Shown piece by piece: positions 17,772 to 64,000 of a DNA stretch of 64,000 bases. How positions within the stretch are numbered: position 1 is the first letter of the stretch; every line of letters starts with the position of its first letter. The stretch is from Candidatus Bathyarchaeia archaeon (GTDB taxonomy: Archaea; Thermoproteota; Bathyarchaeia; TCS64): positions 1-64,000 of the forward strand of contig JBEKDF010000003.1 in assembly GCA_050014495.1 (NCBI GenBank), given 5' to 3'. The notes beneath the pieces are model-generated. The model was not told the origin of the DNA and made no database searches. It worked only from the letters and a program-made list of their open reading frames with translations. Both the position numbers and the translations under genes were made by a program.

Positions 17772-17848
17772 GGGTTCGTAGCTCAGCAAGGTAGAGCGGC
17801 GGCCTCTTAAGCCGTTGGCCGAGGGTTCGAATCCCTCCGAACCCGCCA
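17772..17848 (+). tRNA. tRNA-Lys (CTT)
   Basis: Acceptor GGGTTCG/CGAACCC, anticodon arm GCGGC-CTCTTAA-GCCGT, GGTTCGAATCC, encoded CCA; TATA-like tttaaa about 35 nt upstream. Confidence 0.97.
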
Positions 17849-17870
17849 GTTTTAATTAAATAAAACACTT
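17830..17870 (+). repeat. att copy 1 (attL-like): tRNA-Lys 3' end plus right arm
   Basis: AATCCCTCCGAACCCGCCAGTTTTAATTAAATAAAACACTT, 41 bp identical to 28258-28298. Confidence 0.92.
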
Positions 17871-17959
17871 ACGGCGCGCGAACCTGAAAAATCATTTCCA
17901 AAAAGAGTATTAATAGACACCTTTATTTTATAAGTGTGAAATCGGAGTGAGACCAAGTT

Positions 17960-18733
17960 TTGCCGCTTCCTTTAGTTGAAAGATCAGAGAAAGAAATCGC
18001 GAAAACAATAAAGAAAAGAGTCGAATCATTAAACGACGTCAAGAACTGCCACCAGATTAGCGTCCGAGTGATCGGGAAAAACTACGAGGTCTCCATGCAC
18101 GTCTCAATCGACAGAAACCTCAGGTTCGAAGATGTCCACAAAATAGCATCACACGCCGAGGAGGAGGTGAGAACCATTCTGCCAAACGCTAGGGTAACGG
18201 TTCACACGGAGCCCGTCGGGAGAAACACGCATGATCTCTCGGATCTCGTAAAGGAAGTAGCTGAGGCGGCGCCTGGCTGCAGGGGTGTTCACAACATCCA
18301 TATACAGGAGGTCGACGGGAAAACGTATCTTGACTTTCACCTCGAGGTAGCTGCCAACAGGACCGTGAAGCAGGCGCATGAGATAGCTGATGGCGTCGAG
18401 AAAAAGCTAAAGGAAGCTAGCCAAGGCATCTCGGGGATAACCGTGCACATAGAAAGCGCTTCAGACATAGTTTCTAGGGAGTTGACTGAGACTGGGACAG
18501 AGATGAGGGGCTATATTGAGGATGCCGCCAGGGGTTTCACGGAGATCAGGGACGTTCAGGGCATAGAAATTAGGAGGGTCGGTGACGGCTTGCACATCAT
18601 TCTCAAATGCTTTTTTGACCCTGACCTGAGTATAGAACAGACGCATGCGATATCTGAGAAGCTTGAGGCGACCATAAAAGGCGCTTATCCAAACATTAGC
18701 AGAATAGACATCCACGAAGAACCCTACCTCTAA
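17960..18733 (+). CDS. Soluble protein of three tandem cation-efflux dimerisation (ZT_dimer-like) domains
   Basis: Three repeats each ending in H...E...V/IH.EP/S; no TM segments. Confidence 0.75.
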   Translation: MPLPLVERSEKEIAKTIKKRVESLNDVKNCHQISVRVIGKNYEVSMHVSIDRNLRFEDVHKIASHAEEEVRTILPNARVTVHTEPVGRNTHDLSDLVKEVAEAAPGCRGVHNIHIQEVDGKTYLDFHLEVAANRTVKQAHEIADGVEKKLKEASQGISGITVHIESASDIVSRELTETGTEMRGYIEDAARGFTEIRDVQGIEIRRVGDGLHIILKCFFDPDLSIEQTHAISEKLEATIKGAYPNISRIDIHEEPYL

Positions 18734-18892
18734 AAAATATTCAGATCTCTACATTAAGAGATAAAACCTCAAACTTTTCCAAGTTGTCTTGTAAAGCTTC
18801 TCGAAGAGATACAACCCGTTCCCACTAGTCTTTGCGTAATACCTAAATCGGGCTTCACGCGTAGTGGTGAACTTTGAGGCGGATTCAGACCC

Positions 18893-21472
18893 TTATCAGC
18901 GAAAACAGTTTCCTCGGAGCGCAAAGACTACTGGTCAACCACCCCAGCCGACCTCTACCAGGCCCTCGAAACAGGCTCCAGCGGATTATCTGAACAGGAA
19001 GCCCAAATCAGGCTAAAAAAATACGGATACAACGAGTTTGAGAGACAGCAATTCAGCTGGACCCCAATCCTCGTCAGGCAGTTCAAAAACCCGATCTTCG
19101 CCATCCTAGTCGCATGCGCCGCGGTGTCATTCTTCTTCCAACAGCCCGAGCAATCAATCTCCATACTCGCGATGATCGCCGTAGCCGTGACTCTGGGCTT
19201 CGTCAACGAGTACAGGGCGGAGAAGACCGTCGAGTCCCTGCAGAAGCGGGTATCCATCAAAGCCGTCGTGACTAGGGATGGGAAGCCCTCAGAGATCAAC
19301 TCAAACCAGCTTGTCCCCGGCGACCTCGTCTCGGTGTACGTCGGGGACATCGTCCCAGCCGACATCAGGATAGTGGACTCCAAGGATCTTCACGTAAACG
19401 AATCTGCCCTCACCGGGGAATCGTTTCCCGTAGAGAAGAGCTCTGAGAGCCTAACTCTTCAACGCCCAACGCCCCAGCAGCTAACCAACTACCTGTTCAT
19501 GAGCAGCGTTGTGGCGAACGGGACTGGCCGAGGCATCGTCATCTCCACAGGGAAGAACACGGACTTCGGGGCAATATCGAGGAGCCTGATCCGGTCACAC
19601 CCCGAGACGGAGTTCCAGAAGGGCATCCGGAAGTACGGGTCCCTCCTCATGACGCTTACGCTTGCGCTGACGGTTGGGATATTCGTAATCAACGCCGCTC
19701 TCGGTCACCCACTGGTTGACTCCCTGCTGTTCAGCCTCGCCGTCGCGGTGGGCCTGGTGCCGGAGCTCATGCCCGCAATCGTGACGATCAGCCTCTCCCA
19801 GGGTGCGAGGAACATGTCGAAGTCGAAGGTCATCGTGAAGCGCCTGGTTTCGATCGAGGACTTCGGCAACATGGATGTGCTCTGCACCGACAAGACGGGG
19901 ACGCTTACGGAGGGTAAGATCGTGCTCAAGGACTACTACTCGCTGACGGGGGACAGGGATCCGCGGATCATGTCCTATTCTCTGCTCTGCAGCAACGTTG
20001 TGCAGGGAGAGAAGGTCACCGGCAACCCTATGGATATAGCGATCTGGGAGTTCGCTGACGGGAACGGGGTGAAGGGAAACGTGGAGCCCTACGACAAGGT
20101 GGATGAGGTCCCGTTTGACTACCAGCGGAGAATGATGTCTGTTGTAGTAAGGAGAGACGGCGAGTATACGCTGATCTCTAAGGGCGCACCGGAGTCGGTT
20201 GTTTCCAGGTGCAGATATGCGCAGACGTCGGGGAACATTGAGCCCATCGACGGTTACCTGGGGTCGATTAACGCGAAGTTCTCCAGCCTCTCACTGCAGG
20301 GCTACCGCGTCCTCGCGGTGGCGTATCGTGGTGTGGAACTCAAGAAGTCCTTCAGGGTCGAGGATGAGATGGATCTAACATTCCTCGGGTTCCTCGTGTT
20401 CACGGACCCCGTTAAGGCGGATGCCCATCAGGCCGTCACGACTCTGAAGGAGATGGGCGTCAATGTGAAGATACTGACGGGGGACAACGAGCTTGTGGCT
20501 AGTAAGATCTGCGAAGAGATCAAGGTGTCATCAATCGGCGCTGTTTCTGGTTCGGATCTCTCCGGCATGAGCACATCTGAGCTCCGCTTAGCGGTGGAGA
20601 AGTTCACCATCTTCTCCAGGATCACACCCGATCAGAAGCTGGACATCATCAAGGCTCTGAAGGCTAACAACCACTCGGTCGGCTTCATGGGGGACGGAGT
20701 CAACGACGCCCCGGCCCTGTATGAGGCGGATGTAGGCATATCCGTCGACACGGCGGTCGACGTCGCGAAGGACGCCGCGGATATCGTGCTCCTCGACAAG
20801 GATCTACTGGTACTCGCCGGCGGAGTTGAGGAGGGGCGGAAGATCTTCGGCAACACGATAAAATACGTGTTGATGGGGACGAGTTCGAACTTCGGTAACA
20901 TGTTCAGCGCCGCTGCGGCCTCCATCTTCCTCCCGTTCCTCCCGATGCTGCCGATACAGATTCTGTTCATGAACCTGCTCTACGATATGTCGAACATGAT
21001 GATTCCCACCGATAACGTGGATGAGGAGTACACGAAGATGCCGAGGAAGTGGGACATAGACTTCGTCAGAAAATATACATTGTTCTTCGGCCCATTCAGC
21101 TCCATCTATGACTTCCTCACATTCGGCATCATGCTCTTCATCTTCGGCAGCTCGGTTGGTGGGGCTCACGCGGCTGCGATATTCCAGAGCGGGTGGTTCG
21201 TGGAGTCATTCTGGACCGAGGTATTGATCATGTTCGTTATCAGGACGAGGCGTCTGCCCTTCTTCACTAGTCGCCCAGGGAAGTGGATGACGGCGTTCAT
21301 TTTGGCGTTCGTCGCGTTTGGGACGATCTTCCCCTTCACGCCTTTCGGCGCGTTCATAGGTATGGTTCCGCTTCCGACGGGGTATTGGGTATTACTGATC
21401 CTTATGGTTGCCACGTATCTTTTGCTGGTGGATGAGGCGAAGGTGTTCTTCTACAAGATCTGTAGGTATTGA
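18893..21472 (+). CDS. mgtA: Mg2+-transporting P-type ATPase (MgtA-like); true start uncertain
   Basis: TGES, PELMP, DKTGTLT, GDGVND, SSNFGNMFS, NLLYD; the conserved N-terminus GLSEQEA..RL.KYG.NE is in frame upstream of 19124. Confidence 0.88.
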   Translation, partial: LSAKTVSSERKDYWSTTPADLYQALETGSSGLSEQEAQIRLKKYGYNEFERQQFSWTPILVRQFKNPIFAILVACAAVSFFFQQPEQSISILAMIAVAVTLGFVNEYRAEKTVESLQKRVSIKAVVTRDGKPSEINSNQLVPGDLVSVYVGDIVPADIRIVDSKDLHVNESALTGESFPVEKSSESLTLQRPTPQQLTNYLFMSSVVANGTGRGIVISTGKNTDFGAISRSLIRSHPETEFQKGIRKYGSLLMTLTLALTVGIFVINAALGHPLVDSLLFSLAVAVGLVPELMPAIVTISLSQGARNMSKSKVIVKRLVSIEDFGNMDVLCTDKTGTLTEGKIVLKDYYSLTGDRDPRIMSYSLLCSNVVQGEKVTGNPMDIAIWEFADGNGVKGNVEPYDKVDEVPFDYQRRMMSVVVRRDGEYTLISKGAPESVVSRCRYAQTSGNIEPIDGYLGSINAKFSSLSLQGYRVLAVAYRGVELKKSFRVEDEMDLTFLGFLVFTDPVKADAHQAVTTLKEMGVNVKILTGDNELVASKICEEIKVSSIGAVSGSDLSGMSTSELRLAVEKFTIFSRITPDQKLDIIKALKANNHSVGFMGDGVNDAPALYEADVGISVDTAVDVAKDAADIVLLDKDLLVLAGGVEEGRKIFGNTIKYVLMGTSSNFGNMFSAAAASIFLPFLPMLPIQILFMNLLYDMSNMMIPTDNVDEEYTKMPRKWDIDFVRKYTLFFGPFSSIYDFLTFGIMLFIFGSSVGGAHAAAIFQSGWFVESFWTEVLIMFVIRTRRLPFFTSRPGKWMTAFILAFVAFGTIFPFTPFGAFIGMVPLPTGYWVLLILMVATYLLLVDEAKVFFYKICRY

Positions 21473-21783
21473 TGGGGGTGACTTGTTTGCTTCTTGACCT
21501 TTTCACTTGGTGGATCATCAGCATCTCTTGGAGCATCGTTTTCCTTGTTGTGGTTGGGGTTTACCTGTATGTTGGGAGTAGGTCTAAGCGTAGGGAGAGT
21601 GTTCAAGTGAAGTCGAATGCGATCAGTGTTGCTGGGAGGTTTATGGTGCTCTGGATCCTGCTAGGTCTCCTAGCTTTTTACATCGTCTCAGTCTACTTTG
21701 GTTCCTCGACCTTCTTCGCTGTGGGGAATATCGTTGTGGAAGTTATCTTGATCATTCATGTCGTTAAAAATAGGACTAAGTAA
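21469..21783 (+). CDS. Small membrane protein
   Basis: Three hydrophobic segments; overlaps the mgtA stop. Confidence 0.65.
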   Translation: MMGVTCLLLDLFTWWIISISWSIVFLVVVGVYLYVGSRSKRRESVQVKSNAISVAGRFMVLWILLGLLAFYIVSVYFGSSTFFAVGNIVVEVILIIHVVKNRTK

Positions 21784-21859
21784 TGAATATAATCACACGT
21801 CACGCGAACACGACCTATGACTTCTCGGTATTACAAGCAATAAACACCATGTTAATGTA

Positions 21860-22378
21860 TTAGGGCGGTATAGCTGTCCCAATACTCGAGGCATCATCGG
21901 ACAATACCTTAATTATAAGATACCACCCGAGTAGGGCAAGCAGTGAAAGTGTCTGGATGGAGACAGATGTATCCTCTATGCTTACATTTCCACTAACTTT
22001 ACTAAAGCCATCAAGTTGAATGCTCATAATTTCCTTTTCATCGTTAATCATCAGCGTCCATTTAGTGTGCCAAATATTAGGAACCCACCGGAATCTTCCT
22101 TGATCAGGCAGCCATAATGTTGCTTCTCCATTCCAGCCAATGTTAGCGGTATAGAGATCATTGTCCTTGCCATATTCTCGAATGGTGATTTTAGGCCGTA
22201 GGAAGCCACCTCTCTTGAATGTCCACTTTCCATCGGCAGATTCGGCTGTCACAAGGGACCTCAATTTGCTTGTCCATTGTAACTTTCCCAGAACTTCTTT
22301 TCCGGAGACGAGCTCATCGTTTCTGCTGTCTCGTTGAACCCACTTCAGTTCCTTGAGGTCCATTTTAAGCGACTTCAT
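21860..22378 (-). CDS. Hypothetical protein (beta-rich, scramblase/tubby-like possible)
   Basis: 172 aa ORF, WTFKRGGFLRPKITI, C-terminal helix LLALLGWYL. Confidence 0.7.
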   Translation of the reverse strand: MKSLKMDLKELKWVQRDSRNDELVSGKEVLGKLQWTSKLRSLVTAESADGKWTFKRGGFLRPKITIREYGKDNDLYTANIGWNGEATLWLPDQGRFRWVPNIWHTKWTLMINDEKEIMSIQLDGFSKVSGNVSIEDTSVSIQTLSLLALLGWYLIIKVLSDDASSIGTAIPP

Positions 22379-22479
22379 CTTTCTCTATAATTTGTTGGAA
22401 AGTTGAGAAAGATAAAGCCATCATCAAATTTCAAACGACGACCAGCTTCTCGACTACCAGCAATACGCTCGCTACTATG

Positions 22480-23919
22480 CTAGGTAAGGCTGGAGGATGA
22501 CGAGGCACGCTCGCGACTTTTTACTTTCGCAGTTATCTTCCTGTACGCCGCCGCGAGAAGCCTCACGAAGTTCGCAAGACCCTTGTTCTGCCTCTGTAAA
22601 TTCATTGAAAGCACAGCTTCCTCAGATATAAACTCCCGATTGAGTTCACGCACGTCAGTCTTCTTAGAGAAGTAGAGGTAAACAGGGATCCCCAGAAGGA
22701 TCACAAACGACCCAACAACCTTGTCGAAGAGGGAGGTTGAGTAGAGTAGGTAGAGGCTTACCCCGACCCCTAGCCATGGAAGTATCCTTTGACCTGGAAG
22801 TCCACGCTCGTCACTACTCTTCAGAACAGATAGGGATAGGCAGACAAGGAGATAGCAGATCCCGAGGTTGAAAACTGCAAACGATATGAGTGTTGATAAT
22901 CCGGAGAAAGGCGCGAGCGCCAAGGCAATCACGCCCTCCATGATTATTGCGACGTGGGGTGTCTTAAAACGGGGATGAACCTTACCGAACGCCTTTGGGA
23001 GCAACCCCTCACTAGACATCGCGTAAATGAGGCGAGCGGTCCCCATCACCTCCGTCTCATCGGTGCCGGATACGCTGGCGAGGGCTCCAAGGCTTGTGAT
23101 CACTGCACCAACTGTTCCGAGGAGAACTGTGCTGACCAACACGAGTGGAATTGGGCTCTGTGAGAGTTCGGTCGAGTTAACTAGCCCGAAAACTGAGACG
23201 TTCGTCATTACGTAGAAGAATATCACTATCCCCATTCCGGTGATCATGGCCCTAGGGATGTTCTTTTTCGGGTCGGCGACTTCGCTGCTGGGGAGGCTGC
23301 CGAGTTCGAATCCGACGTAGGCCCAGAAAATCAGAACCAAAACGGTGTTGAAGTTTGTTAGACCCATGGGCGCAAATGGGGTGTAGTTGGCGAGGAGGCT
23401 GGGTCTGAGCAGAATAGATCCAACGCCGAGAATGATTATGATTAGGAGGGGCGTGAGTTTGGCTAGGGTCAGCACATCGTTGAGTCGTCCAGCTGCTTTG
23501 ACGCTGAATACGTTGACTGCCGTGAGGGCCACGATGAAGATGACTCTAACCAGTAGCTGCGCCCAGTAGGTTAACGGAACGAAGAACTGGAGGTAGCTGG
23601 TGAACACTATGGCGAAGACGGGGAGCGCGATGATCTCCGCGATACACATACTCCATCCCGCGATGAAGCCGTAGAAGTCGTCGAAGGCCTTGGAGACGAA
23701 GGCGAATGAGCCTCCCACGTTTGGGACGTAATAGCTGCAGTAGGCGAACACCATCGCCAGAATCATGGAGATTGCTCCACCTATGATCCAGATGCCTATT
23801 GCGGCGGGTCCGATCAGGCCAGCGACGAGGCCGGGGACAATGTAGATGTCGCTGCCGATGATTGCTCCGATTACGATGTTCATGAGGTCGAAGTATGAGA
23901 GGTCCCGCTTTAGCCCCAA
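22480..23919 (-). CDS. APC-family amino acid permease
   Basis: GAIIGSDIY, GGSFAFV, FWAYVGFE, about 12 TM segments. Confidence 0.9.
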   Translation of the reverse strand: MGLKRDLSYFDLMNIVIGAIIGSDIYIVPGLVAGLIGPAAIGIWIIGGAISMILAMVFAYCSYYVPNVGGSFAFVSKAFDDFYGFIAGWSMCIAEIIALPVFAIVFTSYLQFFVPLTYWAQLLVRVIFIVALTAVNVFSVKAAGRLNDVLTLAKLTPLLIIIILGVGSILLRPSLLANYTPFAPMGLTNFNTVLVLIFWAYVGFELGSLPSSEVADPKKNIPRAMITGMGIVIFFYVMTNVSVFGLVNSTELSQSPIPLVLVSTVLLGTVGAVITSLGALASVSGTDETEVMGTARLIYAMSSEGLLPKAFGKVHPRFKTPHVAIIMEGVIALALAPFSGLSTLISFAVFNLGICYLLVCLSLSVLKSSDERGLPGQRILPWLGVGVSLYLLYSTSLFDKVVGSFVILLGIPVYLYFSKKTDVRELNREFISEEAVLSMNLQRQNKGLANFVRLLAAAYRKITAKVKSRERASSSSSLT

Positions 23920-24079
23920 ATAAATTACCTTGGTGAATCCCCGCGATTTTTATTTAAAAGGATTCTTGGGAATTGAACGAACATCCATAATGGTGTACGC
24001 ATATTCATAGTTTTCCTGAACTTATATCGGTTCGCGCACACGTTGATCATATAGCCAGTAGAAGGATGCGCTGACGCAG

Positions 24080-24799
24080 TCACACTGGTATGGCCCCAAT
24101 GAGATGCCCAATCAAATATCCCGCGAACCCAGCTGAAAGCCCGATCAACATCATCTGCAAGGCACTCCTCCAAATCGAGCCCACCGTTATCCTCGCCTCG
24201 TATGCGCCTATCAAAAAGAGCAACACTCCACTCAGAATCACCGATGCGATCGTACCGGAGGATATTGTAGCTGCCGTAACGAAGAGGAACGGAATCAGAG
24301 GTATGATCGAGCCAAAAACGGTGGCGGACAGTACAACGGCGAAGCTGCGCCTCGCTTCGCTCTCCTCAACCGGTGGGAGTTTTAGTTCGAATGACATCAT
24401 GAACTCCAGCATCGCCTTCGGGTTAGACGCGATCTGACTAGTTAGAGTATCAAGCTGCATACCCTCGTAGCCTAGGCTCTTCAAAATCCTCCGTACCTCT
24501 TCGAGCTCCACATCGCCGTATTTCTTCATTTCAAGCTGCTCCCGGGAGACCTCCTTCAGATACTGTTGACGCCTGGCTAGAGTTGATGTGTAGGCGACTG
24601 CGCCCATCGAAATCGATTCTGCGCCCAGTGCTGCGAGGGCGGCGACGTAGATTATCTTCACGTTGCTTGTTGCTGCAGATACTCCCAGTAGAATACCTAG
24701 AACGTTTACAAGCCCGTCTTGGCTTCCAAGGACGAAATCCGACAAAAACGAGCGCGAAGAATGGGGCTCCTTATATGGTTTTTTAGATTTGGCATTCAC
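24080..24799 (-). CDS. VIT1/CCC1 family Fe/Mn transporter
   Basis: DFVLGSQDGLV, SISMGAVAY. Confidence 0.9.
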   Translation of the reverse strand: MNAKSKKPYKEPHSSRSFLSDFVLGSQDGLVNVLGILLGVSAATSNVKIIYVAALAALGAESISMGAVAYTSTLARRQQYLKEVSREQLEMKKYGDVELEEVRRILKSLGYEGMQLDTLTSQIASNPKAMLEFMMSFELKLPPVEESEARRSFAVVLSATVFGSIIPLIPFLFVTAATISSGTIASVILSGVLLFLIGAYEARITVGSIWRSALQMMLIGLSAGFAGYLIGHLIGAIPV

Positions 24800-25226
24800 T
24801 TCTTTTCCCGCCTCTTATGCATAGCATTTACCCTTAACAAGGCTGTGAATTTATTTAAAAACTCTCAAAAACCCTTGCATATATGCAAATGAGGCTTTAA
24901 AGAGTTTAAAATAATATTCAAATTTAAAACTAGTCTCATTGTTCTTCAGCTATTAAAAAATCCATTATGATTTTATTATTGGTTAGATCATGGGGTGTTT
25001 TTCCACTGCAGAGATAAGTGATCTTTTTTACATTTCTCGCATCTTTCAATACACTTGCACCACATAATGGACAGCTCACTCCTTGGACATCTTGATAAAT
25101 TCGTTTAAAAGACATGGTATATAATTTGATAAAAATATATATAAATTTAATTGCTATTGCACCATAATCATTTATTCGTTTTTGACTCCTAACTGGGAGG
25201 TTGCTAAACGTACGAGGTTTTATCTG

Positions 25227-28007
25227 TTAGGTTTGTCGATGGATTGCACCTAAGATTAGTTTCGTAGCCTCATCGATGAGTAGTATCACTAGGGCTAGTG
25301 CGAACATGATCCCCCAATCGTACAATGCTAGAGGCGCCGTCCCGAAGACCAGCTGAAGGATTGGCACATAGACTATGGATAATAGGAGAAGAAGCATAGC
25401 CACTATCCCTGCGGGGATCCATTTGTTCCTCGACGGGTTCGATGAGAGGATCGAGTGAGATCCAGTCCTCGTGGAGAGCACGTTTCCAAGCTGCCCTAAC
25501 ATTATTCCAGCGAGCACAGCGGTCGTACCAATCGCGTAGAGTGTCGGGTCATTTACTGTGCTGATCCCGAGGTGCCATCCTCCCCGGCTCCAGATCACGA
25601 AGGCGTAGAGCATGGGCAAGGCCCCCTCTATTGTGCCTACGAAGGTCGCTCGACCAAGAATCCCGTAGTCTAATAGCCTAACGTCGCGTGCTCTTGGTGG
25701 TCTATCCATTATGTCCTCTTCCGGAGGCTCAGCGATCAGAGCTAATGCGATTGGTATCTCAAGGATCACCTCGATGGCGAGCACCCCCATCACTGTGAGT
25801 GGGAGTGGAACCAGCAGTAGTATGAATGCCACGAATGTCACCAACTCGGCGAAGTTGTGGGTGTAGATGTAGTAGGCGAACTTACGGAGGTTGTCAAAAG
25901 TAGCCCTCCCGAGTCTCACGCCCTCAATGATAGAGGTGAAGTCGTTATCGAGGAGCACCATATCAGAGGATTCGCGGGCAACATCGGTGCCACCTCCCAT
26001 GGAGATCCCGACGTCCGCCTCGATTAGGGCTGGGGCGTCGTTGACGCCGTCGCCTGTGACGGCGACGATCTCTCCCCCATTCATGAATGTCTTCACTATT
26101 CTTAGCTTGTGTTCTGGTGAGGTGCGTGCAAACACCACCTCGCCTTTCGTAACCTCAGCCAACTCATCGTCAGTCATCTTGTTGAGCTCAGGGCCTGTAA
26201 CGATCCTATAGTCCGTTCCCGTGATTATGCCGGTCTTTTTAGCGATCGCTGCTGCGGTCAGCTCGTGGTCTCCGGTAATCATAACGACCTTAATCCCGCC
26301 CTTCTTTGCGTGGCTTACGGCGGCCTCCACTTTCGGCCTTGGGGGGTCGTGGAGGGCCGCGAGGCCGAGGAGGGTCATCTCCCTCTCGACGTTCTCGGAT
26401 TCCATCTCTATGCTAGCTGGTAACCTCTTGGAGGCTAGGGCGAGAACCCTATAGCCCTCGGCTGCGAAACGGTCAATCTGCTCCCTTATTCCGTCTCTCA
26501 TCTCATCCGTTAGTGGAGTAACTCGGCGATCGAAGTAGACTTCGGTGCATCTTTCGAGTACATCGTAGCTAGATCCCTTAGAGTAGGCCTTCAACCAGCC
26601 TTCTCCATCCCGGTGGATCACCGTCATCATCCTCCTCCTCGTGTCGAATGGCAGGAAACCTACACGCGGCTTCTCCACAGAGGCGAGGGCTGAGTTAAAG
26701 TCCCCCTTTCCGGCGAACACGAGAAAGGCCCCGTCAGTTTGGTCACCCAGGATAGACCACCTGCCTATCCGGTCTGTGGGGGCGACGATTCTGGCGTTGG
26801 TACAAAACGCGGAGACCTCGAATAAGCTAGTGATGTGAGATCTCTCCTCCGGATTCACCCTCCTGCCCTGGATGGTGACGAATCCCTGTGGACTGTACCC
26901 GTCGCCGCTGACGTCGAAGACCCTCCCGCTAGCCCAGAGCCTCTCAACCATCATCTCCCCGCTTGTTATAGTGCCTGTTTTGTCAACGCAGAGGACGGTT
27001 GTGGAGCCCATGGTCTCGATCGCGGAGAGACGCTTCACGACGACGTTCCTCTTCGCCATCTTGACAGCCGTTATGGCTAGGCTGAGGGAGATGCAGAGCT
27101 GGAAGCCCCAGGGGACGAAGGAGAGGATTACACCTATCGCGAATAGGATATTCGCCACGATTGTTAGGTTGACTAAGACCCTGGCGATGAGGAAAAAGAT
27201 CGCTCCAACTATGAAGGCGAGTATGAGAGTCAGCCTTGCGGTTCGTTCGATCTCTTTTTCGAGAGGGCTGGGTGATTCACCGATCTCGCTTGAGAGAGCT
27301 ACGATTCCACCGAACTGCGTCTCCTTGCCCGTGGCTAGTACTACACCTCTAGCCACACCTGATACCATTGTGGACCCAGCGAAGAGGAGGTTCTGGTATT
27401 CAGTAGCGGTGTTCGCAGTCAGACCAGGGGTCGTATCCACGAATCGCCGTTGAGCCTCCGACTCGCCCGTGAGAACTGAGTTGTCAACAGAGACCTCGAA
27501 GGCACTCACTAACCTTACATCAGCGGGGACCTTATCCCCCTCATCGAATAACACGAGGTCCCCGAGAACCACCTCGGAGACATCCACCTGCTCCTCGACT
27601 CCTGATCTGAGCACCTTCGCTTTAGTAGGTATCAGCCTCTTAATTGTCTGGACAGCTTGCTCAGCTCGGTATTCTTGGAAGATGCTGAAGGCGATGTTGA
27701 TGGCGACCACAGCGATTAGGGCGAAGCCCGTCTGCACAGATCCTATGTCCCCATAGACGAAGCCAGTGAAGAGTGAAAGCGCGGCGGCAAGTAGTAGAAG
27801 GATACAGAAGCCATTCTTGAGCTGTTCCGCTACCCGGCTCGCTAGACCTCTTTTCTTAGCAGTAGGTACTGTGTTTGGCCCATTTTTTTCGAGCCTAAGT
27901 GTAGCCTCATCTCTAGTAAGCCCGTTTGGACCCGTGGCGAAGCGCTTGTACACCTCGTCTACCTTTGATAAGGCAAAATCCTCGTATTCTATTCGACTCC
28001 CCCCCAC
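25227..28007 (-). CDS. Type II cation-transporting P-type ATPase
   Basis: TGESE, DKTGTIT, TGDH, GDGVNDAPAL. Confidence 0.92.
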   Translation of the reverse strand: MGGSRIEYEDFALSKVDEVYKRFATGPNGLTRDEATLRLEKNGPNTVPTAKKRGLASRVAEQLKNGFCILLLLAAALSLFTGFVYGDIGSVQTGFALIAVVAINIAFSIFQEYRAEQAVQTIKRLIPTKAKVLRSGVEEQVDVSEVVLGDLVLFDEGDKVPADVRLVSAFEVSVDNSVLTGESEAQRRFVDTTPGLTANTATEYQNLLFAGSTMVSGVARGVVLATGKETQFGGIVALSSEIGESPSPLEKEIERTARLTLILAFIVGAIFFLIARVLVNLTIVANILFAIGVILSFVPWGFQLCISLSLAITAVKMAKRNVVVKRLSAIETMGSTTVLCVDKTGTITSGEMMVERLWASGRVFDVSGDGYSPQGFVTIQGRRVNPEERSHITSLFEVSAFCTNARIVAPTDRIGRWSILGDQTDGAFLVFAGKGDFNSALASVEKPRVGFLPFDTRRRMMTVIHRDGEGWLKAYSKGSSYDVLERCTEVYFDRRVTPLTDEMRDGIREQIDRFAAEGYRVLALASKRLPASIEMESENVEREMTLLGLAALHDPPRPKVEAAVSHAKKGGIKVVMITGDHELTAAAIAKKTGIITGTDYRIVTGPELNKMTDDELAEVTKGEVVFARTSPEHKLRIVKTFMNGGEIVAVTGDGVNDAPALIEADVGISMGGGTDVARESSDMVLLDNDFTSIIEGVRLGRATFDNLRKFAYYIYTHNFAELVTFVAFILLLVPLPLTVMGVLAIEVILEIPIALALIAEPPEEDIMDRPPRARDVRLLDYGILGRATFVGTIEGALPMLYAFVIWSRGGWHLGISTVNDPTLYAIGTTAVLAGIMLGQLGNVLSTRTGSHSILSSNPSRNKWIPAGIVAMLLLLLSIVYVPILQLVFGTAPLALYDWGIMFALALVILLIDEATKLILGAIHRQT

Positions 28008-28229
28008 CCGCCCATGAAGTTTTTTTCTTTCGCCTTCTGTGGTTTTCCTCCTTTTTTCAGTTTTTTATTACTATGTTACTTCGCTATAGTGGATATTAGA
28101 AATTTAAACTTTGATGTTTGGACATACTTGCGAATTATGGATTAAAGGCATTAAATCATAAACTTCGAGGCCGCGAGGTCTGAATACTTAACGGTTTAAG
28201 TCCCTCCGGTCTCCTACCGATATGAAAAC

Positions 28230-28298
28230 AAATACGAATGGAATAAAATTTTACGCAAATCCCTCCGAACCCGCCAGTTTTAATTAAATAAAACACTT
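28230..28298 (+). repeat. att copy 2 (attP-like junction: left arm, core, right arm)
   Basis: Left arm AAATACgAATGGAATAAAATTTTAcGCA shared with copy 3; 19-bp core; right arm shared with copy 1. Confidence 0.9.
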
Positions 28299-28527
28299 TA
28301 ATGCCGATAAAATAAAATTTTAGGTTGACACCCCAATCGCGCGCGCGTATCTGCGGAAGACGCGAGAGATCAACCGATTCTCGAGGCCCTTATGTTTTGT
28401 CCTCTGAGTTTTTTTCACACATTCTAGAAATGAGCACATATAATCACTAGTAGAATGTTAATTCAAATTTGTCACCAATTTCAGAATCAATAGTCTTCAC
28501 GGGAATCCCCGCGCGTGCTGATTACCA

Positions 28528-29118
28528 CTATTTTTCTTTTCCCAGTATACTTAGAGACAAGTCACTTAGAATATGCACCAATTCTTCATCAGACTTTGCG
28601 AAAGGTGCTTGGAAGAGATGTCTATGAACAAGCGCATCGACTAGACCATAAACCCTGAGGTATTTTTCAACAAGCTCACTTAACTGAGCCGGTGAGCTAA
28701 TCTCCGTGAAGTTAGCTCGAATCTTGGTTTCGATCAGCTCCGCTCGACTCCGTTTTAGCCCCTCGAAAAGGTCCTTCTTCTCCAGGATTGCCTGATCGAA
28801 AGCTCTGTACATCGCCTCGTTTTTACGATGGTTTTCCAGGTGAAGCGTTATCTCCCTCTTAACGTCCTCGTCAGAACCCTTGAGTACGAAGATCGGATCC
28901 ATCATAACGTTGAGAGACTCCTCCCAAAAACCAGCCGCTATCTCCGGCTTACCCTCGGTGAAGTAGTGATAAATTATACCGATGCTGATACCAGCGTCTT
29001 CAGCTATCTTGCGGGTGGTGACTTTCTCATATCCTTCGGAGTTGACGAGGCGAGAGAAGGACTTGTAGATTAGCTTGATCTTCTCGTCTTTGTCACGGGT
29101 TATGACTCGTGTGACCAT
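28528..29118 (-). CDS. TetR/AcrR family regulator
   Basis: GYEKVTTRKIAEDAGISIGIIYHYF; start set at ATG of MVTRV. Confidence 0.9.
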   Translation of the reverse strand: MVTRVITRDKDEKIKLIYKSFSRLVNSEGYEKVTTRKIAEDAGISIGIIYHYFTEGKPEIAAGFWEESLNVMMDPIFVLKGSDEDVKREITLHLENHRKNEAMYRAFDQAILEKKDLFEGLKRSRAELIETKIRANFTEISSPAQLSELVEKYLRVYGLVDALVHRHLFQAPFAKSDEELVHILSDLSLSILGKEK

Positions 29119-29130
29119 GACCACTAGTTG

Positions 29131-29196
29131 TTGAATGTTGTTCATAAAGCTTTTATATTGACTAATGTTCAATAGTTTATTGAGGGATGTTCAATA
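29131..29196. promoter_or_regulatory. Tandem TetR-type operators
   Basis: TATTGA-N7-TCAATA at 29156-29174 and 29178-29196; degenerate TTGA-N7-TCAT at 29131-29145. Confidence 0.7.
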
Positions 29197-29221
29197 AATA
29201 TAACGGAGGGAGGCGTGTAGG

Positions 29222-30064
29222 TTGACAAAAATTATGATCGATGACCTAGAGATGTATTACGAGATTCATGGAGAAGGCTTCCCACTAATAATGATACAGG
29301 GATACAATGGAACCACAGAGAGTTGGGATACATTAGTCCCAAGGCTAAGTGATCTGTCAAAACGCTTCAGAGCCATAGTAATCGATAACCGGGGAACCGG
29401 GAGAAGCAGTGCTCCCGAAGGGGAATACTCCATCAATACGATGGTGAAGGACGTAGTTGGATTGCTAGACGCTCTGAAAATACGTGAGGCACACATACTA
29501 GGTGTCTCTATGGGTGGAATGATAGCCCAGGAACTCGCCATCAACCACCCAGAGAGGGTGAAAAACCTTGTTCTAACCTGTACTTTCCCCGGCGGCCACA
29601 CTCTAGACTCGATCCCTGGACAGAGAGCGGCCCTCGAGAAAAACGCTTGGCTCTATTCTCCCCCACCGGGTGTAACGCAAGAGGCAGTGAGGGAGCAGAT
29701 GCTCCGCATGGTTTATCGCCCAAAGTTCCTCGAGGAGAACAGAGCTAAGATCTTATCCGCCTCAGTGAAGTATCCGACTTCATCCTCGACGCTGGAGAAG
29801 CATTTTGATGTCATATTGAAGTTCAACACCTACAGTAGGCTTGGGAGGATCCGTTCAAAGACACTCATTATCCATGGCGAGGATGACGAGTTAGTGATGC
29901 CCGAGGGTGGGGAGATCCTCGCGAGGTTGATTCCTAATTCTAGGTTGTTGATGTGTAAGGAGGCCAGCCATTGTGTGCTCGAGGAGAAGTGGAGCGAGGT
30001 AAAACCCGTCATATTGGATCATCTCTCAGAGCCGTGTCTCGAGAGCATAGGAAGCGTGTTTTAA
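29222..30064 (+). CDS. Alpha/beta hydrolase
   Basis: DNRGTGRS, GVSMGG, HGEDD, ASH. Confidence 0.92.
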   Translation: MTKIMIDDLEMYYEIHGEGFPLIMIQGYNGTTESWDTLVPRLSDLSKRFRAIVIDNRGTGRSSAPEGEYSINTMVKDVVGLLDALKIREAHILGVSMGGMIAQELAINHPERVKNLVLTCTFPGGHTLDSIPGQRAALEKNAWLYSPPPGVTQEAVREQMLRMVYRPKFLEENRAKILSASVKYPTSSSTLEKHFDVILKFNTYSRLGRIRSKTLIIHGEDDELVMPEGGEILARLIPNSRLLMCKEASHCVLEEKWSEVKPVILDHLSEPCLESIGSVF

Positions 30065-31081
30065 ATGTTAATTAGATGCCCCTACTGTAATGAGACTCTA
30101 AGAGAGAAGAGGGACATTTGCCCATACTGCAAGGCATACATAAAAAATGAGATGGATAAGATAAGCGAAGTCGAAGCCAAGCCAAAATATTCAACACTTT
30201 TTTTCATAAAAGAAGCCATCATGAGTGAGCTGAAACCCGAACCGATCGAGATGTTACCCAGCAAGGTCGCTTACCGGAGAAGACCCCGCAGCTCGCTGAG
30301 GAAGTACCTCATATATGGCACATTAATGATAATTCTCGGCTGCTGCCTTATTTTCGGTGACCTTTGGGTTCAATATATTGGATTAACAATCAACTGCTTC
30401 ACCGTTCCCATCGTCATCGTAGCCTGGTTTCTACAGAACGACCGCTACGACCCCGAACCGATTAGCCTCGTAGTTTACCTATTTGGTTGGGGTGCAATAG
30501 CCGGTTTGCTCTCATACCTCATTAACCCCCTACTTTACCCCTACCTTGGAGTCGCTGGAGGCGCATTTGTGGAGGAGCCCCTCAAATTATTTGGGGTATA
30601 TCTTTTTGCCAAAGGTAAGGTCTTCGGCTCTGGGATTAACAGCCATCTTGACGGCATGATCTATGGGGCATCAGTTGGGGCTGGTTTTGCCTCCCTTGAA
30701 AACATGCTTTACCTCTTCTACGGTAACCCCAGCAGCATTCCCCTCGCCCTATTGGCGAGAGTCACAACGACGTTCTGTCAAATTGCCTGGACCGCCATCG
30801 CTGCTAGGACACTTGGATTAGCTCTGGCTCTCCGAGGCAATATGAAGGTGACGGACCTTCTCCCCGGTCTCCTTGTCGTCATCCCGCTTCATTTCCTCTG
30901 GAACAGTTTCCCAGATTTCATGAGAGGATGGTTCATGCTACCAATTATGCTGCTGATTCTGTTCAGAGAAGTGAACATGGCTGTCAATGATGAGGTGAGT
31001 TGGGGCTTCAAACTCGTGGGGCCAAATGCAAATAGGGTACGACGAAGAAACCTATACGAACAAGTTCGCCACGGGAAATAG
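30065..31081 (+). CDS. PrsW-family intramembrane protease with N-terminal zinc ribbon
   Basis: CPYC...CPYC, EP, EEPLK, GFASLEN, HFLWN. Confidence 0.85.
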   Translation: MLIRCPYCNETLREKRDICPYCKAYIKNEMDKISEVEAKPKYSTLFFIKEAIMSELKPEPIEMLPSKVAYRRRPRSSLRKYLIYGTLMIILGCCLIFGDLWVQYIGLTINCFTVPIVIVAWFLQNDRYDPEPISLVVYLFGWGAIAGLLSYLINPLLYPYLGVAGGAFVEEPLKLFGVYLFAKGKVFGSGINSHLDGMIYGASVGAGFASLENMLYLFYGNPSSIPLALLARVTTTFCQIAWTAIAARTLGLALALRGNMKVTDLLPGLLVVIPLHFLWNSFPDFMRGWFMLPIMLLILFREVNMAVNDEVSWGFKLVGPNANRVRRRNLYEQVRHGK

Positions 31082-31137
31082 TCAAAATATCAATGAAATC
31101 AAACGAGTTAGAAACCTTTTTTCTGAAAGTAACTGGC

Positions 31138-31830
31138 TTACTGGATTTTAACAGCAATCGCCTTTATGATGTCAGAGGTGTTCTTGCACCAGTCTGAAAC
31201 TAACTCAAGTGAGTCCACAAATTCAATCAATAAATATAGAGGCCCCGGCTCCCAATCGACGAACTTGAGTTTTCCGAAGTTAATCCTCGATTTAGCGTGG
31301 AGCATATCGACTTCTTCCTCAATGTTTTCAACCTTTTGCGTCAACTCAATGCATTTTTTTGGGTTAAGCCTCATATAACTGAAGCATTCAGTGAGGGCCT
31401 CGACGCACGCATAATCCGTCTTACCCATATCTAAGATAATGTCCTTCAACTCTACTGGTACCTTTTGTAAATCCAACACGCTCAGGAGTGAACCCGCCTC
31501 ATGGCCGCTATCCGCAATATAGTCGATTGCCCTGGTTAGATCGATTATATCCATCTTCTCCTCGGGAAACATCTCACTCACAGACATTTTATCTATCAGC
31601 TCTTTTCTTATTAAGTCGGCTTCATGTTCCTCTTGATGCAGATCCCAAAAGTATTTTTCAATTTCCTCCGAATTTCCCTTCAATGACGCCTCGATCATTC
31701 TGTTCAGATTCCCGATTACATCTTTAGTCAGCGCGAAATGTTTCCTAGCTAATTCGATGATCTGATTACCCCTCTTCTGAGAAAACCAGCTAAACAGAAC
31801 TTTAGACAACTCATCACCCCAATTATTCAA
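31138..31830 (-). CDS. DUF47/PhoU-like phosphate transport regulator
   Basis: EHEADLI, DYIAD, ENIEEEVD, ELVSD. Confidence 0.85.
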   Translation of the reverse strand: MNNWGDELSKVLFSWFSQKRGNQIIELARKHFALTKDVIGNLNRMIEASLKGNSEEIEKYFWDLHQEEHEADLIRKELIDKMSVSEMFPEEKMDIIDLTRAIDYIADSGHEAGSLLSVLDLQKVPVELKDIILDMGKTDYACVEALTECFSYMRLNPKKCIELTQKVENIEEEVDMLHAKSRINFGKLKFVDWEPGPLYLLIEFVDSLELVSDWCKNTSDIIKAIAVKIQ

Positions 31831-31946
31831 TTAACTGACGATATATTTATCGCGCATGCAATATTGGGTTAAGACCTTATTCTAATTCGATAACTAATTT
31901 TTAAAAAAAATCAGGGAGAAACGCGCGCACTTATTTCCTTCTATCT

Positions 31947-31993
31947 AAATACTAATGGAATAAAATTTTAGGCAAATCCCTCCGAACCCGCCA
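31947..31993 (+). repeat. att copy 3 (attR-like): left arm plus core
   Basis: AAATACtAATGGAATAAAATTTTAgGCA followed by AATCCCTCCGAACCCGCCA (31975-31993). Confidence 0.9.
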
Positions 31994-62762: not shown

Positions 62763-63485
62763 GTGGGCAACATTTTATCGTCAGTCGACTGGGGCTCCTG
62801 TCCGCTTAGCCTCCTCAAAAGTGTGAAGGAACTCAAGCCGAATAATCCAGCAATAATCCACATTAGACATACCGAGCGACCCGGCCTATCTGGGCCAAAT
62901 AGCAACAAGCTTCTGAGCACATCGAGGGGGAAAGATGCAGCCATCGAGTTTGGCGAACGCCTATCCGATGATAGGAGCTACCGCGTCTACCATACCATCG
63001 TTGATAGGTCGAAGCAGTCAGCGGAATCGATCGTCGAAGGAATAAGGAGGAGTGGAAACAAGGCAGAGATCAGTGGGGTGTTTCCCTTCCGAACATCCTA
63101 CGACCCTAAAGCTATGGACAATTATATAGACAAAGTCTTCAAAAAATGTGGAGACGAGGATTTAGCGGTTGCGGAGATGATGAACCGCTGGCTCGCAGGC
63201 TTAGCTCCTCTGGAGATATTCCGGCCCTCCAGTGAGTTCGCTAGGATGGTAGCTGAGTATACTTTGCTCCGCCTAAAAACAGCTGAGCCAGATAACATCG
63301 ATCTCTACGTCACCCACGACACATGGGTCGGAGCCACACTCTTCCACTGGTTCGGCTTACCAATTCCCCTCGATGGGATTAGGTTCCTCGATGGATTCAT
63401 ACTCCAACCCCTCGATGAGGAGATGGCGGTTTGGTTCAGGGCAAAGGCTTTGAGGATAGAGTACCCGCATTGGTGGGGTGGGTAA
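62763..63485 (+). CDS. Histidine phosphatase superfamily protein
   Basis: IRHTER, L.S.G...A, RSKQSA, YVTHD. Confidence 0.8.
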   Translation: MGNILSSVDWGSCPLSLLKSVKELKPNNPAIIHIRHTERPGLSGPNSNKLLSTSRGKDAAIEFGERLSDDRSYRVYHTIVDRSKQSAESIVEGIRRSGNKAEISGVFPFRTSYDPKAMDNYIDKVFKKCGDEDLAVAEMMNRWLAGLAPLEIFRPSSEFARMVAEYTLLRLKTAEPDNIDLYVTHDTWVGATLFHWFGLPIPLDGIRFLDGFILQPLDEEMAVWFRAKALRIEYPHWWGG

Positions 63486-64000
63486 ATAGCTGTTTACTTA
63501 TCTCCTCGACGTCAGCGGGTGGATATCCAGAGTAGTACTTGCTGAAGTAGGCGTAGACATCACGCCCTGACTCGAGGTATCTCTTCGCCTTATTGGCCCA
63601 TTCAGCTGTCTCTATCCCCCTTTCCACCTCGACAATCCCCCTCTGTCCATTCACGGCTTTTCTGTCTCCTTCGAGGCGAATATAAGCGAAGCTGGCGGTC
63701 TCGACATTTGCAGCGTCCGACCTGTTTGTCAACGCGAGGGCGACGCCATGGTCTCTGAGTAACTTGTAGGTCTCCTCGGTGAACCAGCGCTTATTCCTGA
63801 ACTCGGCGGCGATGAGCCTCTTCTTAGGGATCTTCTCCAACAGGTCGTTGAGGGCAGTGTGAGTGGGCTTTAGGAATGGTGGAAACTGGAGGAGCATTGG
63901 CCCCAACTTCGCCCCGAGAATATCTATGTGACTGAGGAAGACCTCAAGCTTCCCCGAGTCGTAGACGAGGCCGGGGACATGGGTCACTGTCTGTGGGAAC
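63436..64000 (-). CDS. DUF72 domain protein (5' end outside the window)
   Basis: KLGPMLLQFPP, AEFRNKRW, YIRLEG, YAYF. Confidence 0.88.
   Translation of the reverse strand, partial: FPQTVTHVPGLVYDSGKLEVFLSHIDILGAKLGPMLLQFPPFLKPTHTALNDLLEKIPKKRLIAAEFRNKRWFTEETYKLLRDHGVALALTNRSDAANVETASFAYIRLEGDRKAVNGQRGIVEVERGIETAEWANKAKRYLESGRDVYAYFSKYYSGYPPADVEEISKQLFTHPTNAGTLSSKPLP

Follow-up and report, generated by a model that had tools for sequence, protein, structure and literature searches.

Introduction

Cis-mobilizable elements (CIMEs) and microCIMEs of Streptococcus, as described in the parts of two reports drawn on here, derive by deletion from integrative elements, keep their attachment (att) sites, lack integrase and transfer genes, span 1.2-13 kb with cargo or persist as gene-less micro forms, and build tandems by site-specific accretion; in S. 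agalactiae, tRNA-Lys(CTT) has been reported as a hot spot (PMC7563491, PMC5704250). In this work we analyze two integrase-less units stacked at tRNA-Lys(CTT) in the first 64,000 nucleotides (hereafter, the window) of contig JBEKDF010000003.1, which belongs to a 96%-complete assembly of a Candidatus Bathyarchaeia archaeon (GCA_050014495.1; G000). We conclude that the units are probably decayed Bathyarchaeia integrative elements of the tRNA 3′-end type, arranged in a CIME-like tandem and connected through their ends to a newly traced integrase family.

Passages on archaeal tRNA elements describe short att repeats (median 17 bp), tRNA targets and arrays that form as tyrosine recombinases re-use a site (PMC6563490, PMC8371274). 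In the consulted part of their description, Islander-type searches discard candidates without an integrase (PMC4383910), so units like the present ones would be missed by design. The tycheposons of Prochlorococcus, according to portions of the preprint that reports them, are cargo-carrying integrative elements of the flexible genome, with reported tandem junctions (bioRxiv 10.1101/2020.12.28.424599).

A preliminary description, made from the sequence of the locus alone, had likened it to an integron, with cassettes mobilized in trans. Integrons comprise IntI, attI and attC, and accumulate tandem units with shared ends at a single site. Casposons carry cas1 and polB between terminal inverted repeats, and can generate a 15-bp duplication at a tRNA.

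Results

Anatomy of the tandem

The tRNA-Lys(CTT) gene lies downstream of a rps13-rps4-rps11-rpoD-rpl18e cluster (gene names assigned by eye). The tandem that follows it comprises these features, all on the forward strand:

17772..17848, +, intact tRNA-Lys(CTT), the integration target (tRNA call)
17830..17848, +, core copy 1, attL (sequence match)
17849..28276, +, unit 1, 10,428 bp, G+C 0.51
17849..17870, +, 22-bp right arm (P′) belonging to unit 1
28177..28219, +, att relic of another type ("arm2" plus a degenerate tRNA 3′ core), immediately internal to the left arm
28230..28257, +, left arm (arm1) of unit 1, a variant seen again at other metagenome loci
28258..28276, +, core copy 2, the P-core-P′ junction joining the units (sequence match)
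28277..31993, +, unit 2, 3,717 bp, G+C 0.45
28277..28298, +, unit 2 right arm (P′), with the same sequence as in unit 1
28300..28337, +, gene-less micro-remnant of about 40 bp: degenerate arm1 (5 mismatches in 25) plus partial core
31947..31974, +, unit 2 left arm (arm1), in the variant most common in the arm family
31975..31993, +, core copy 3, attR; the original chromosomal flank (TAATACT, then terC) comes next

The 19-bp core, AATCCCTCCGAACCCGCCA, starts at 17830, 28258 and 31975, with spacings of 10,428 and 3,717 bp and no further match at up to three mismatches; shuffled sequences give a mean of 0.03 matches, and none of 100 shuffles gets to three. Copies 1 and 2 have 41 bp exactly in common (core plus the 22-bp right arm), and copies 2 and 3 share 47 bp at 96% identity (28-bp left arm plus core). 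The tRNA gene is intact, its 3′ fragment is displaced downstream in the same orientation, as in 3′-end-type islands, and the tandem keeps both attL and attR. The preliminary description had reported these three cores, two shared arms and unit lengths, all of which we confirm, and its reading of attL, P-core-P′ and attR as the product of two successive site-specific integrations is supported. It had overlooked the micro-remnant, the att relic, whose stacking inside the left arm recurs in many relatives, and the alternating (GC)n runs beside the arms.

Contigs from 4 of the 24 listed public sequencing runs were examined, two of the four possibly being the source of the present DNA. An assembly artefact at the 41-bp repeat would fit one observation, namely that graph contigs break there, as expected, and cannot phase copies 1 and 2. 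We nonetheless hold it to be very improbable: depth is even over the flanks and both units in the four runs, three metagenome loci (L103, L129 and L138) carry the same junctions at 99.98-100% identity, although they may not be independent, and the empty site of congeners fits exactly. Neither an empty-site joint nor an excision joint is listed among the contigs of these runs; absence of the latter is weak evidence, because contigs drop rare forms. A joint of 17838 with 19346 in Logan, matching over 20-base sides only, was treated as another organism's. No RNA data set with the locus is listed.

The units carry no integrase

PF00589 matches 13 times genome-wide and never within the window. Profiles of the integrase family introduced below, run against all six frames with stops masked, score below 0 bits, the positive control reaching 710 bits. 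The window holds no tyrosine recombinase, and upstream of the insertion site lie rpl18e and the tRNA. No fragment of an SSV-type split integrase accompanies any core; SSV-like arrangements are present at other tRNAs of G000. The open reading frames (ORFs) of the units include no integrase, relaxase or transfer gene, two of them (104 and 172 aa) matching no family, and neither unit keeps a backbone remnant of a parent element. The preliminary claim that the units lack a recognizable integrase is thus borne out. A decayed integrase inside them, which that description had named as a sign of ordinary degenerate islands, was also looked for, and as no remnant was found this attempt at refutation failed.

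The left arm marks the end of an element family

The left arm occurs in 15 of the 71 genomes of the host's taxonomic family (reversed-pattern control, 0), at 50 metagenome loci and at 4 genome-collection loci; the four titled records are all Bathyarchaeia. Among 66 distinct contexts, 26 run into a tRNA 3′ end, mostly of Ala, Arg or Lys type, and 40 into degenerate cores, where a tRNA 3′ end was called from its 3′ 15-mer with at most two mismatches (random background, 1 in 20,000 positions). The register relative to the tRNA is fixed, with arm sequence running through position 61 and target-type sequence from position 62. At Ala-type sites the 8 bp on each side of positions 61-68 form imperfect inverted repeats, which would correspond to the core geometry of a tyrosine recombinase.

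The target-type sequence covers positions 62-76, exactly 15 bp, as would a target-site duplication of the tRNA 3′ end produced by a casposase-type (Cas1) insertion, and G000 holds six solo cas1 copies or fragments. Such an origin is nevertheless highly unlikely: no examined cas1 locus has a credible arm beside it, the inverted arm precedes a tyrosine recombinase instead (see below), and a look upstream turned up no second copy of the non-tRNA cores, most loci being short. The units themselves contain neither cas1 nor polB, and the solo copies elsewhere lack the arm. These six related genes (C80:1669-2646, C18:49659, C46:1576, C6:94716, C79:2411 and C24:45648) had no other cas gene noticed nearby; five are truncated at the 5′ end and start at GCGC-type motifs, and close homologues in congeners often stand behind an ORF of about 200 aa.

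The left arm is often stacked with two other att types, which suggests that element families insert beside each other's ends. Examples include G000 C61:2063-4902 and the loci L093, L102, L118, L124 and L131, where two or three different att arms and degenerate tRNA cores lie within about 100 bp. A second integrase-less stack in G000 (L096, C10:45278-52509) occupies tRNA-Arg(CCT) and combines two arm types with three displaced cores; its cargo includes a TBP-like and a CoA-transferase-like gene, both named by eye. At tRNA-Ala(GGC) of the congener G011 (L373, contig C40), a complete 2.3-kb integrase-less unit has the same anatomy as the present ones: one molybdopterin-oxidoreductase-like gene, with a GC run on each side, stands between a 17-bp arm and the left arm.

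Every complete arm1-bounded unit seen lacks an integrase: both units described here, those at tRNA-Ala in G011 and tRNA-Arg in G000 C10, and L144, which has a degenerate core. The left arm is also much better conserved than the DNA on either side, although the search pattern favors such conservation. Both observations would suit non-autonomous cassettes, built elsewhere without an integrase and inserted here in trans by the integrase of an intact family member, the main rival explanation, which we regard as possible but rather unlikely.

Among 106 ORFs upstream of the arm at the de-duplicated metagenome and genome loci no integrase was found, a weak null because most loci do not reach the tRNA end. 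The idea that the arm is integrase coding sequence was rejected by eye, since wobble positions are invariant and one codon is radically changed. For a viral source of the arm, the long search pattern gave no match and the short pattern two, on AT-rich virus contigs without a core, which we took as chance. An SSV-type integrase gene at tRNA-Ser (L251, G072 contig C28) contains, within its coding sequence, 17 bp identical to part of the left arm, which may likewise be chance.

A candidate cognate integrase family

When the flanks of tRNA-Ala were surveyed across the genus (25 matches, 18 genomes), inverted copies of the left arm were seen directly downstream of the tRNA; in G013 an integrase-like ORF comes next. 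The corresponding family consists of tyrosine recombinases of about 440 aa, with homologues in 48 of 401 genomes of the class and 135 homologues at E <= 1e-20 in a large protein collection. At nearly all of the 30 loci inspected the gene starts some 55-135 bp past the tRNA 3′ end on the same strand. The family has no match in Pfam or NCBIfam; a PF00589 survey of the host's taxonomic family accordingly recovered many tRNA-linked integrases, with the cognate one, which Pfam misses, not among them. Sequence searches of solved structures found no relative, and fold search alone gave matches: the predicted structure (mean predicted local distance difference test score, 81) resembles XerA, the integron integrase IntI and Cre in Foldseek, with a top E of about 2e-6. 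R152, R281, H308 and Y316 are near-invariant, and no viral relatives were found.

On a quick version of the integrase tree, arm type tracks integrase clade. Compared with the arms preceding these integrases, the reverse complement of the left arm scores 27, a value reached by none of 1000 shuffles; the same comparison gives 21 and 19 at two tRNA-Ala flanks that resemble family remnants, and at most 17 at other tRNA flanks. The arm-matching clade includes an integrase at tRNA-Lys(CTT) in G026, from a related genus, and at L064 the left arm, a Lys-like core and a right arm follow one another, the latter starting like the one that precedes the G026 integrase.

Intact integrases of the present arm type exist in the same genus (G013 and G004), as insertion of cassettes in trans would need. 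G000 itself speaks against that explanation: no integrase of the left-arm type was found there, the best match having 39% identity and belonging to the other arm clade. Its only full-length family member (C48, at tRNA-Val) falls in that other clade, so a helper in trans was not found in this assembly, which does not bear out the mobilization in trans proposed by the preliminary description.

The tRNA-Lys site in relatives

The DNA downstream of tRNA-Lys could be read in 14 of 17 congeners. Three (G002, G008 and G012) have the empty site, with the tRNA joined exactly to TAATACT and terC, as the preliminary description had predicted for an unoccupied site. Two carry the same right arm followed by different downstream DNA: G011 (19/22 matches), where the cargo is unrelated and 10 kb contain no integrase, and G005 (18/22), whose contig stops after 0.6 kb. 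In G016 another 3.1-kb island with different ends follows the tRNA, and the remaining eight have other flanks. Over 401 genomes of the class, the combination of right arm and Lys core appears in three only, and in a tree of 1.7 kb of the ribosomal operon the three right-arm species are not sisters, G011's sister G009 being without the arm. The flank survey and this scatter indicate that the insertion is accessory and its site re-used.

A further explanation would be that one ancestral island lost its integrase once, its cargo diverged by lineage, and the tandem arose by crossover between a donor attR and the resident attL within the 19-41-bp repeats. Identical right arms and the resemblance of the cargo to genes of related Bathyarchaeia would both follow from it. 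We consider it unlikely, given that the left arms differ at two positions, with each variant found separately in other populations, and that the arm-bearing species are scattered on the tree.

Two other tRNA flanks in G000 deserve mention. After tRNA-Met at C28:8266, 13 bases stand in register with the Lys right arm and are followed by a GC run, possibly another remnant. The tRNA called by ARAGORN at C37:27995-28088, with a TTA anticodon reading and a 7-base intron, resembles tRNA-Lys and is probably tRNA-Lys(TTT) with a mis-placed intron.

(GC)n runs at the joints

Short alternating GC runs, to which no strand is assigned, recur beside the arms and cargo:

17874..17880, (GC)n run, 3 bp beyond where the unit 1 right arm ends
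28338..28347, 10-bp (GC)n run that cuts the micro-remnant
28510..28515, (GC)n run close to where tetR homology stops
31851..31855, short CGCGC where the prsW-phoU homology to relatives ends
31922..31928, (GC)n run about 18 bp ahead of the left arm of unit 2

Further runs in the window lie at 116, 39467, 46914 and 52652. The run at 17874..17880 is likely the joint at which the original interior of unit 1 was removed. GC runs also interrupt right arms in G011 (twice) and in G005. Of five attL sites of integrase-less type, four lose the right arm at a GC run 17-30 bp past the tRNA, a regularity that would suit ready-made cassettes; against this, a T-rich right arm could persist merely as the terminator of the tRNA.

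GCGCGC is the most over-represented hexamer of G000 (1.75-fold) and is 13 times denser outside long ORFs. Its intergenic DNA contains some 890 alternating-GC runs of 6-10 bp, whose length distribution breaks off abruptly at 10 bp; counts in 201 genomes of the class, not corrected for G+C, range from 0 to over 600. Because an earlier test of paralog ends (389 of 2260, compared with 65 +/- 8) was confounded by gene ends, it was replaced by one on mid-gene truncations. Runs are present at 18 of 102 such ends, at 0-3 in 11 shifted windows and at 2.3% of intact ORF ends, and they are missing from the intact copies of the truncated genes. A run likewise stands at 7 of 93 indel junctions, and in these seven both parent ends have none (two of the seven being the same pair). 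Presence at truncations and absence from intact copies suggest non-templated end-joining, in which the GC runs would be non-templated linkers of a DNA-joining process.

Candidate sources for the runs were examined in turn. An operon at the right edge of the window comprises a LigD-type polymerase, Ku, an ATP-dependent ligase and one further gene (63439-64000 of the window and C3:64209-67463 of G000). Ku was found in 45 of 201 genomes of the class. Ku/LigD was rejected as the source, Ku being present, by hand count, in 9 of 21 genomes with at least 100 runs and in 36 of the 180 others, and some Ku-positive congeners having about one run; extra primases do not sort run-rich from run-poor genomes either. 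A literature search found no paper on a GC footprint or on these Bathyarchaeia elements, most subscription papers and supplements lying outside its scope.

Cargo

The units contain 11 ORFs on both strands, seven in unit 1 and four in unit 2, which encode transporters, a regulator, enzymes or proteins of no known family:

17960..18733, +, protein with three CDF zinc-transporter dimerisation domains (PF16916 x3)
18878..21472, +, Mg2+-translocating P-type ATPase (TIGR01524, above cut-off)
21469..21783, +, 104-aa protein, no family match
21860..22378, -, 172-aa protein, no family match
22480..23919, -, APC-family amino-acid permease
24080..24799, -, VIT1/CCC1-family transporter
25227..28007, -, second cation P-type ATPase
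28528..29172, -, TetR-family regulator
29222..30064, +, alpha/beta hydrolase
30065..31081, +, PrsW-family intramembrane protease
31138..31830, -, PhoU-like DUF47 protein

The frame of the Mg2+-ATPase is open from 18878, the first common start codon is at 19124, and about 80 codons upstream of it are also homologous; the 5′ end may therefore be clipped and the true start seems lost. An ORF similar in size to the 104-aa one follows this ATPase gene in G002, G011 and G012. The second P-type ATPase shares 67-70% DNA identity with a gene of many congeners and with the copy on C4 of its own genome, and is thus likely a foreign extra copy. The tetR gene is 89% identical in DNA to one in a different context in G002, and its neighbor in G002, G011 and G012 is a different gene. 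G013 and G005 also have the prsW-phoU pair, GC runs lying close to its ends. On these sequence comparisons the cargo is a mosaic, single genes of which turn up separately, in other contexts, in congeners. As whole entities neither unit recurs in any of 70 genomes of the taxonomic family, which, together with the lack of a listed excision joint in the four runs (a weak point, as noted), argues against cassettes moving in trans.

Discussion

Taken together, we favor the reading of both units as decayed tRNA 3′-end elements. Given the switch from arm to target-type sequence between positions 61 and 62, the recombinase would bind inverted sites around tRNA positions ~62-68 and exchange strands there. 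Unit 2 would be the older insertion and unit 1 the younger, because an incoming element restores the tRNA and displaces its predecessor. Afterwards the interiors were likely emptied and host-type genes put in their place at (GC)n-marked joints, the integrase presumably being deleted by the same illegitimate joining that leaves the runs. By analogy with CIMEs, the remnants may now be mobile only with the integrase of an intact relative, or when such a relative integrates alongside.

Several observations weigh against this reading. No complete element with integrase and left arm was seen, the contigs ending too early, so the link between integrase and arm is a chain of matches rather than one sequence. 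Compared with the right arms of the integrase family, the Lys-type right arm does no better than 576 of 1000 shuffles, the G011 variant being equaled by 44 of 1000. GC runs are absent from 84 of 102 truncation ends and 86 of 93 indel junctions, and neither Ku nor extra primases track them. Finally, the fresh look of the arms contrasts with the loss of every backbone fragment, and the right arms, which do not differ between the units, are cut at nearly one position, give or take a few bases, in three species, all of which is at least as easily explained by units that travelled already stripped.

We also put forward, tentatively and as the more speculative proposal, a two-step mode of gene capture in some Bathyarchaeia, in which an end-joining activity would add short self-complementary (GC)n linkers, splicing gene-sized foreign pieces to one another and deleting integrases, and the products, with ~25-bp arms of a multi-tRNA integrase family at their ends, would circulate as non-autonomous cassettes stacking at tRNAs. 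The GC joints, the most surprising feature here, resemble the trace of a DNA-joining process not yet described which, if real, would explain piecewise gene gain and loss in these uncultured archaea. The integrase family is of interest in its own right, for its short symmetric att sites and its tRNA targets can be read from sequence.

Among known systems, the resemblance to integrons that the preliminary description had stressed does not hold up. The locus shares with integrons a tandem of units with common ends at one insertion site, the newest likely first. It differs in its tRNA target, in the absence of an adjacent or resident integrase, in its multi-gene, bidirectional units with their own intergenic regions, and in ends that look like double-stranded att arms. 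Moreover, the arms are those of a family whose members have the integrase immediately after the tRNA-side arm. An attC-type site was not observed: none of the 25 longest inverted repeats listed spans an arm, no attC model having been run. The units depart from tyrosine-recombinase tRNA islands in having no integrase of their own inside, and from tycheposons, which the consulted portions of the preprint define by integrases and other hallmark genes, none of which they have (bioRxiv 10.1101/2020.12.28.424599).

Cryptic integrated elements of Thaumarchaeota and other archaeal tandems, as presented in the passages cited above, share the short att repeats, tRNA targets and site re-use seen here; integrase-less arrays with shared arms are not described in those passages (PMC6563490, PMC8371274). 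The closest parallel, as far as the consulted parts of the CIME reports extend, remains that of the CIMEs, with which the locus has in common the retention of attL and attR, the absence of integrase and transfer genes, tandem stacking and a gene-less micro form. Relative to them, the host is archaeal, the parent would be of tRNA 3′-end type with a recombinase missed by Pfam, both members are stripped, even the tRNA-proximal one, non-templated (GC)n runs would mark the joints, and one arm type serves several tRNAs. CIME parents are conjugative or mobilizable (integrative and conjugative, or integrative and mobilizable, elements); the intact relatives recovered here lie on short contigs. Within these bounds, the locus provides an archaeal example of the CIME accretion pattern known from bacteria, of a kind that island finders requiring an integrase would miss.

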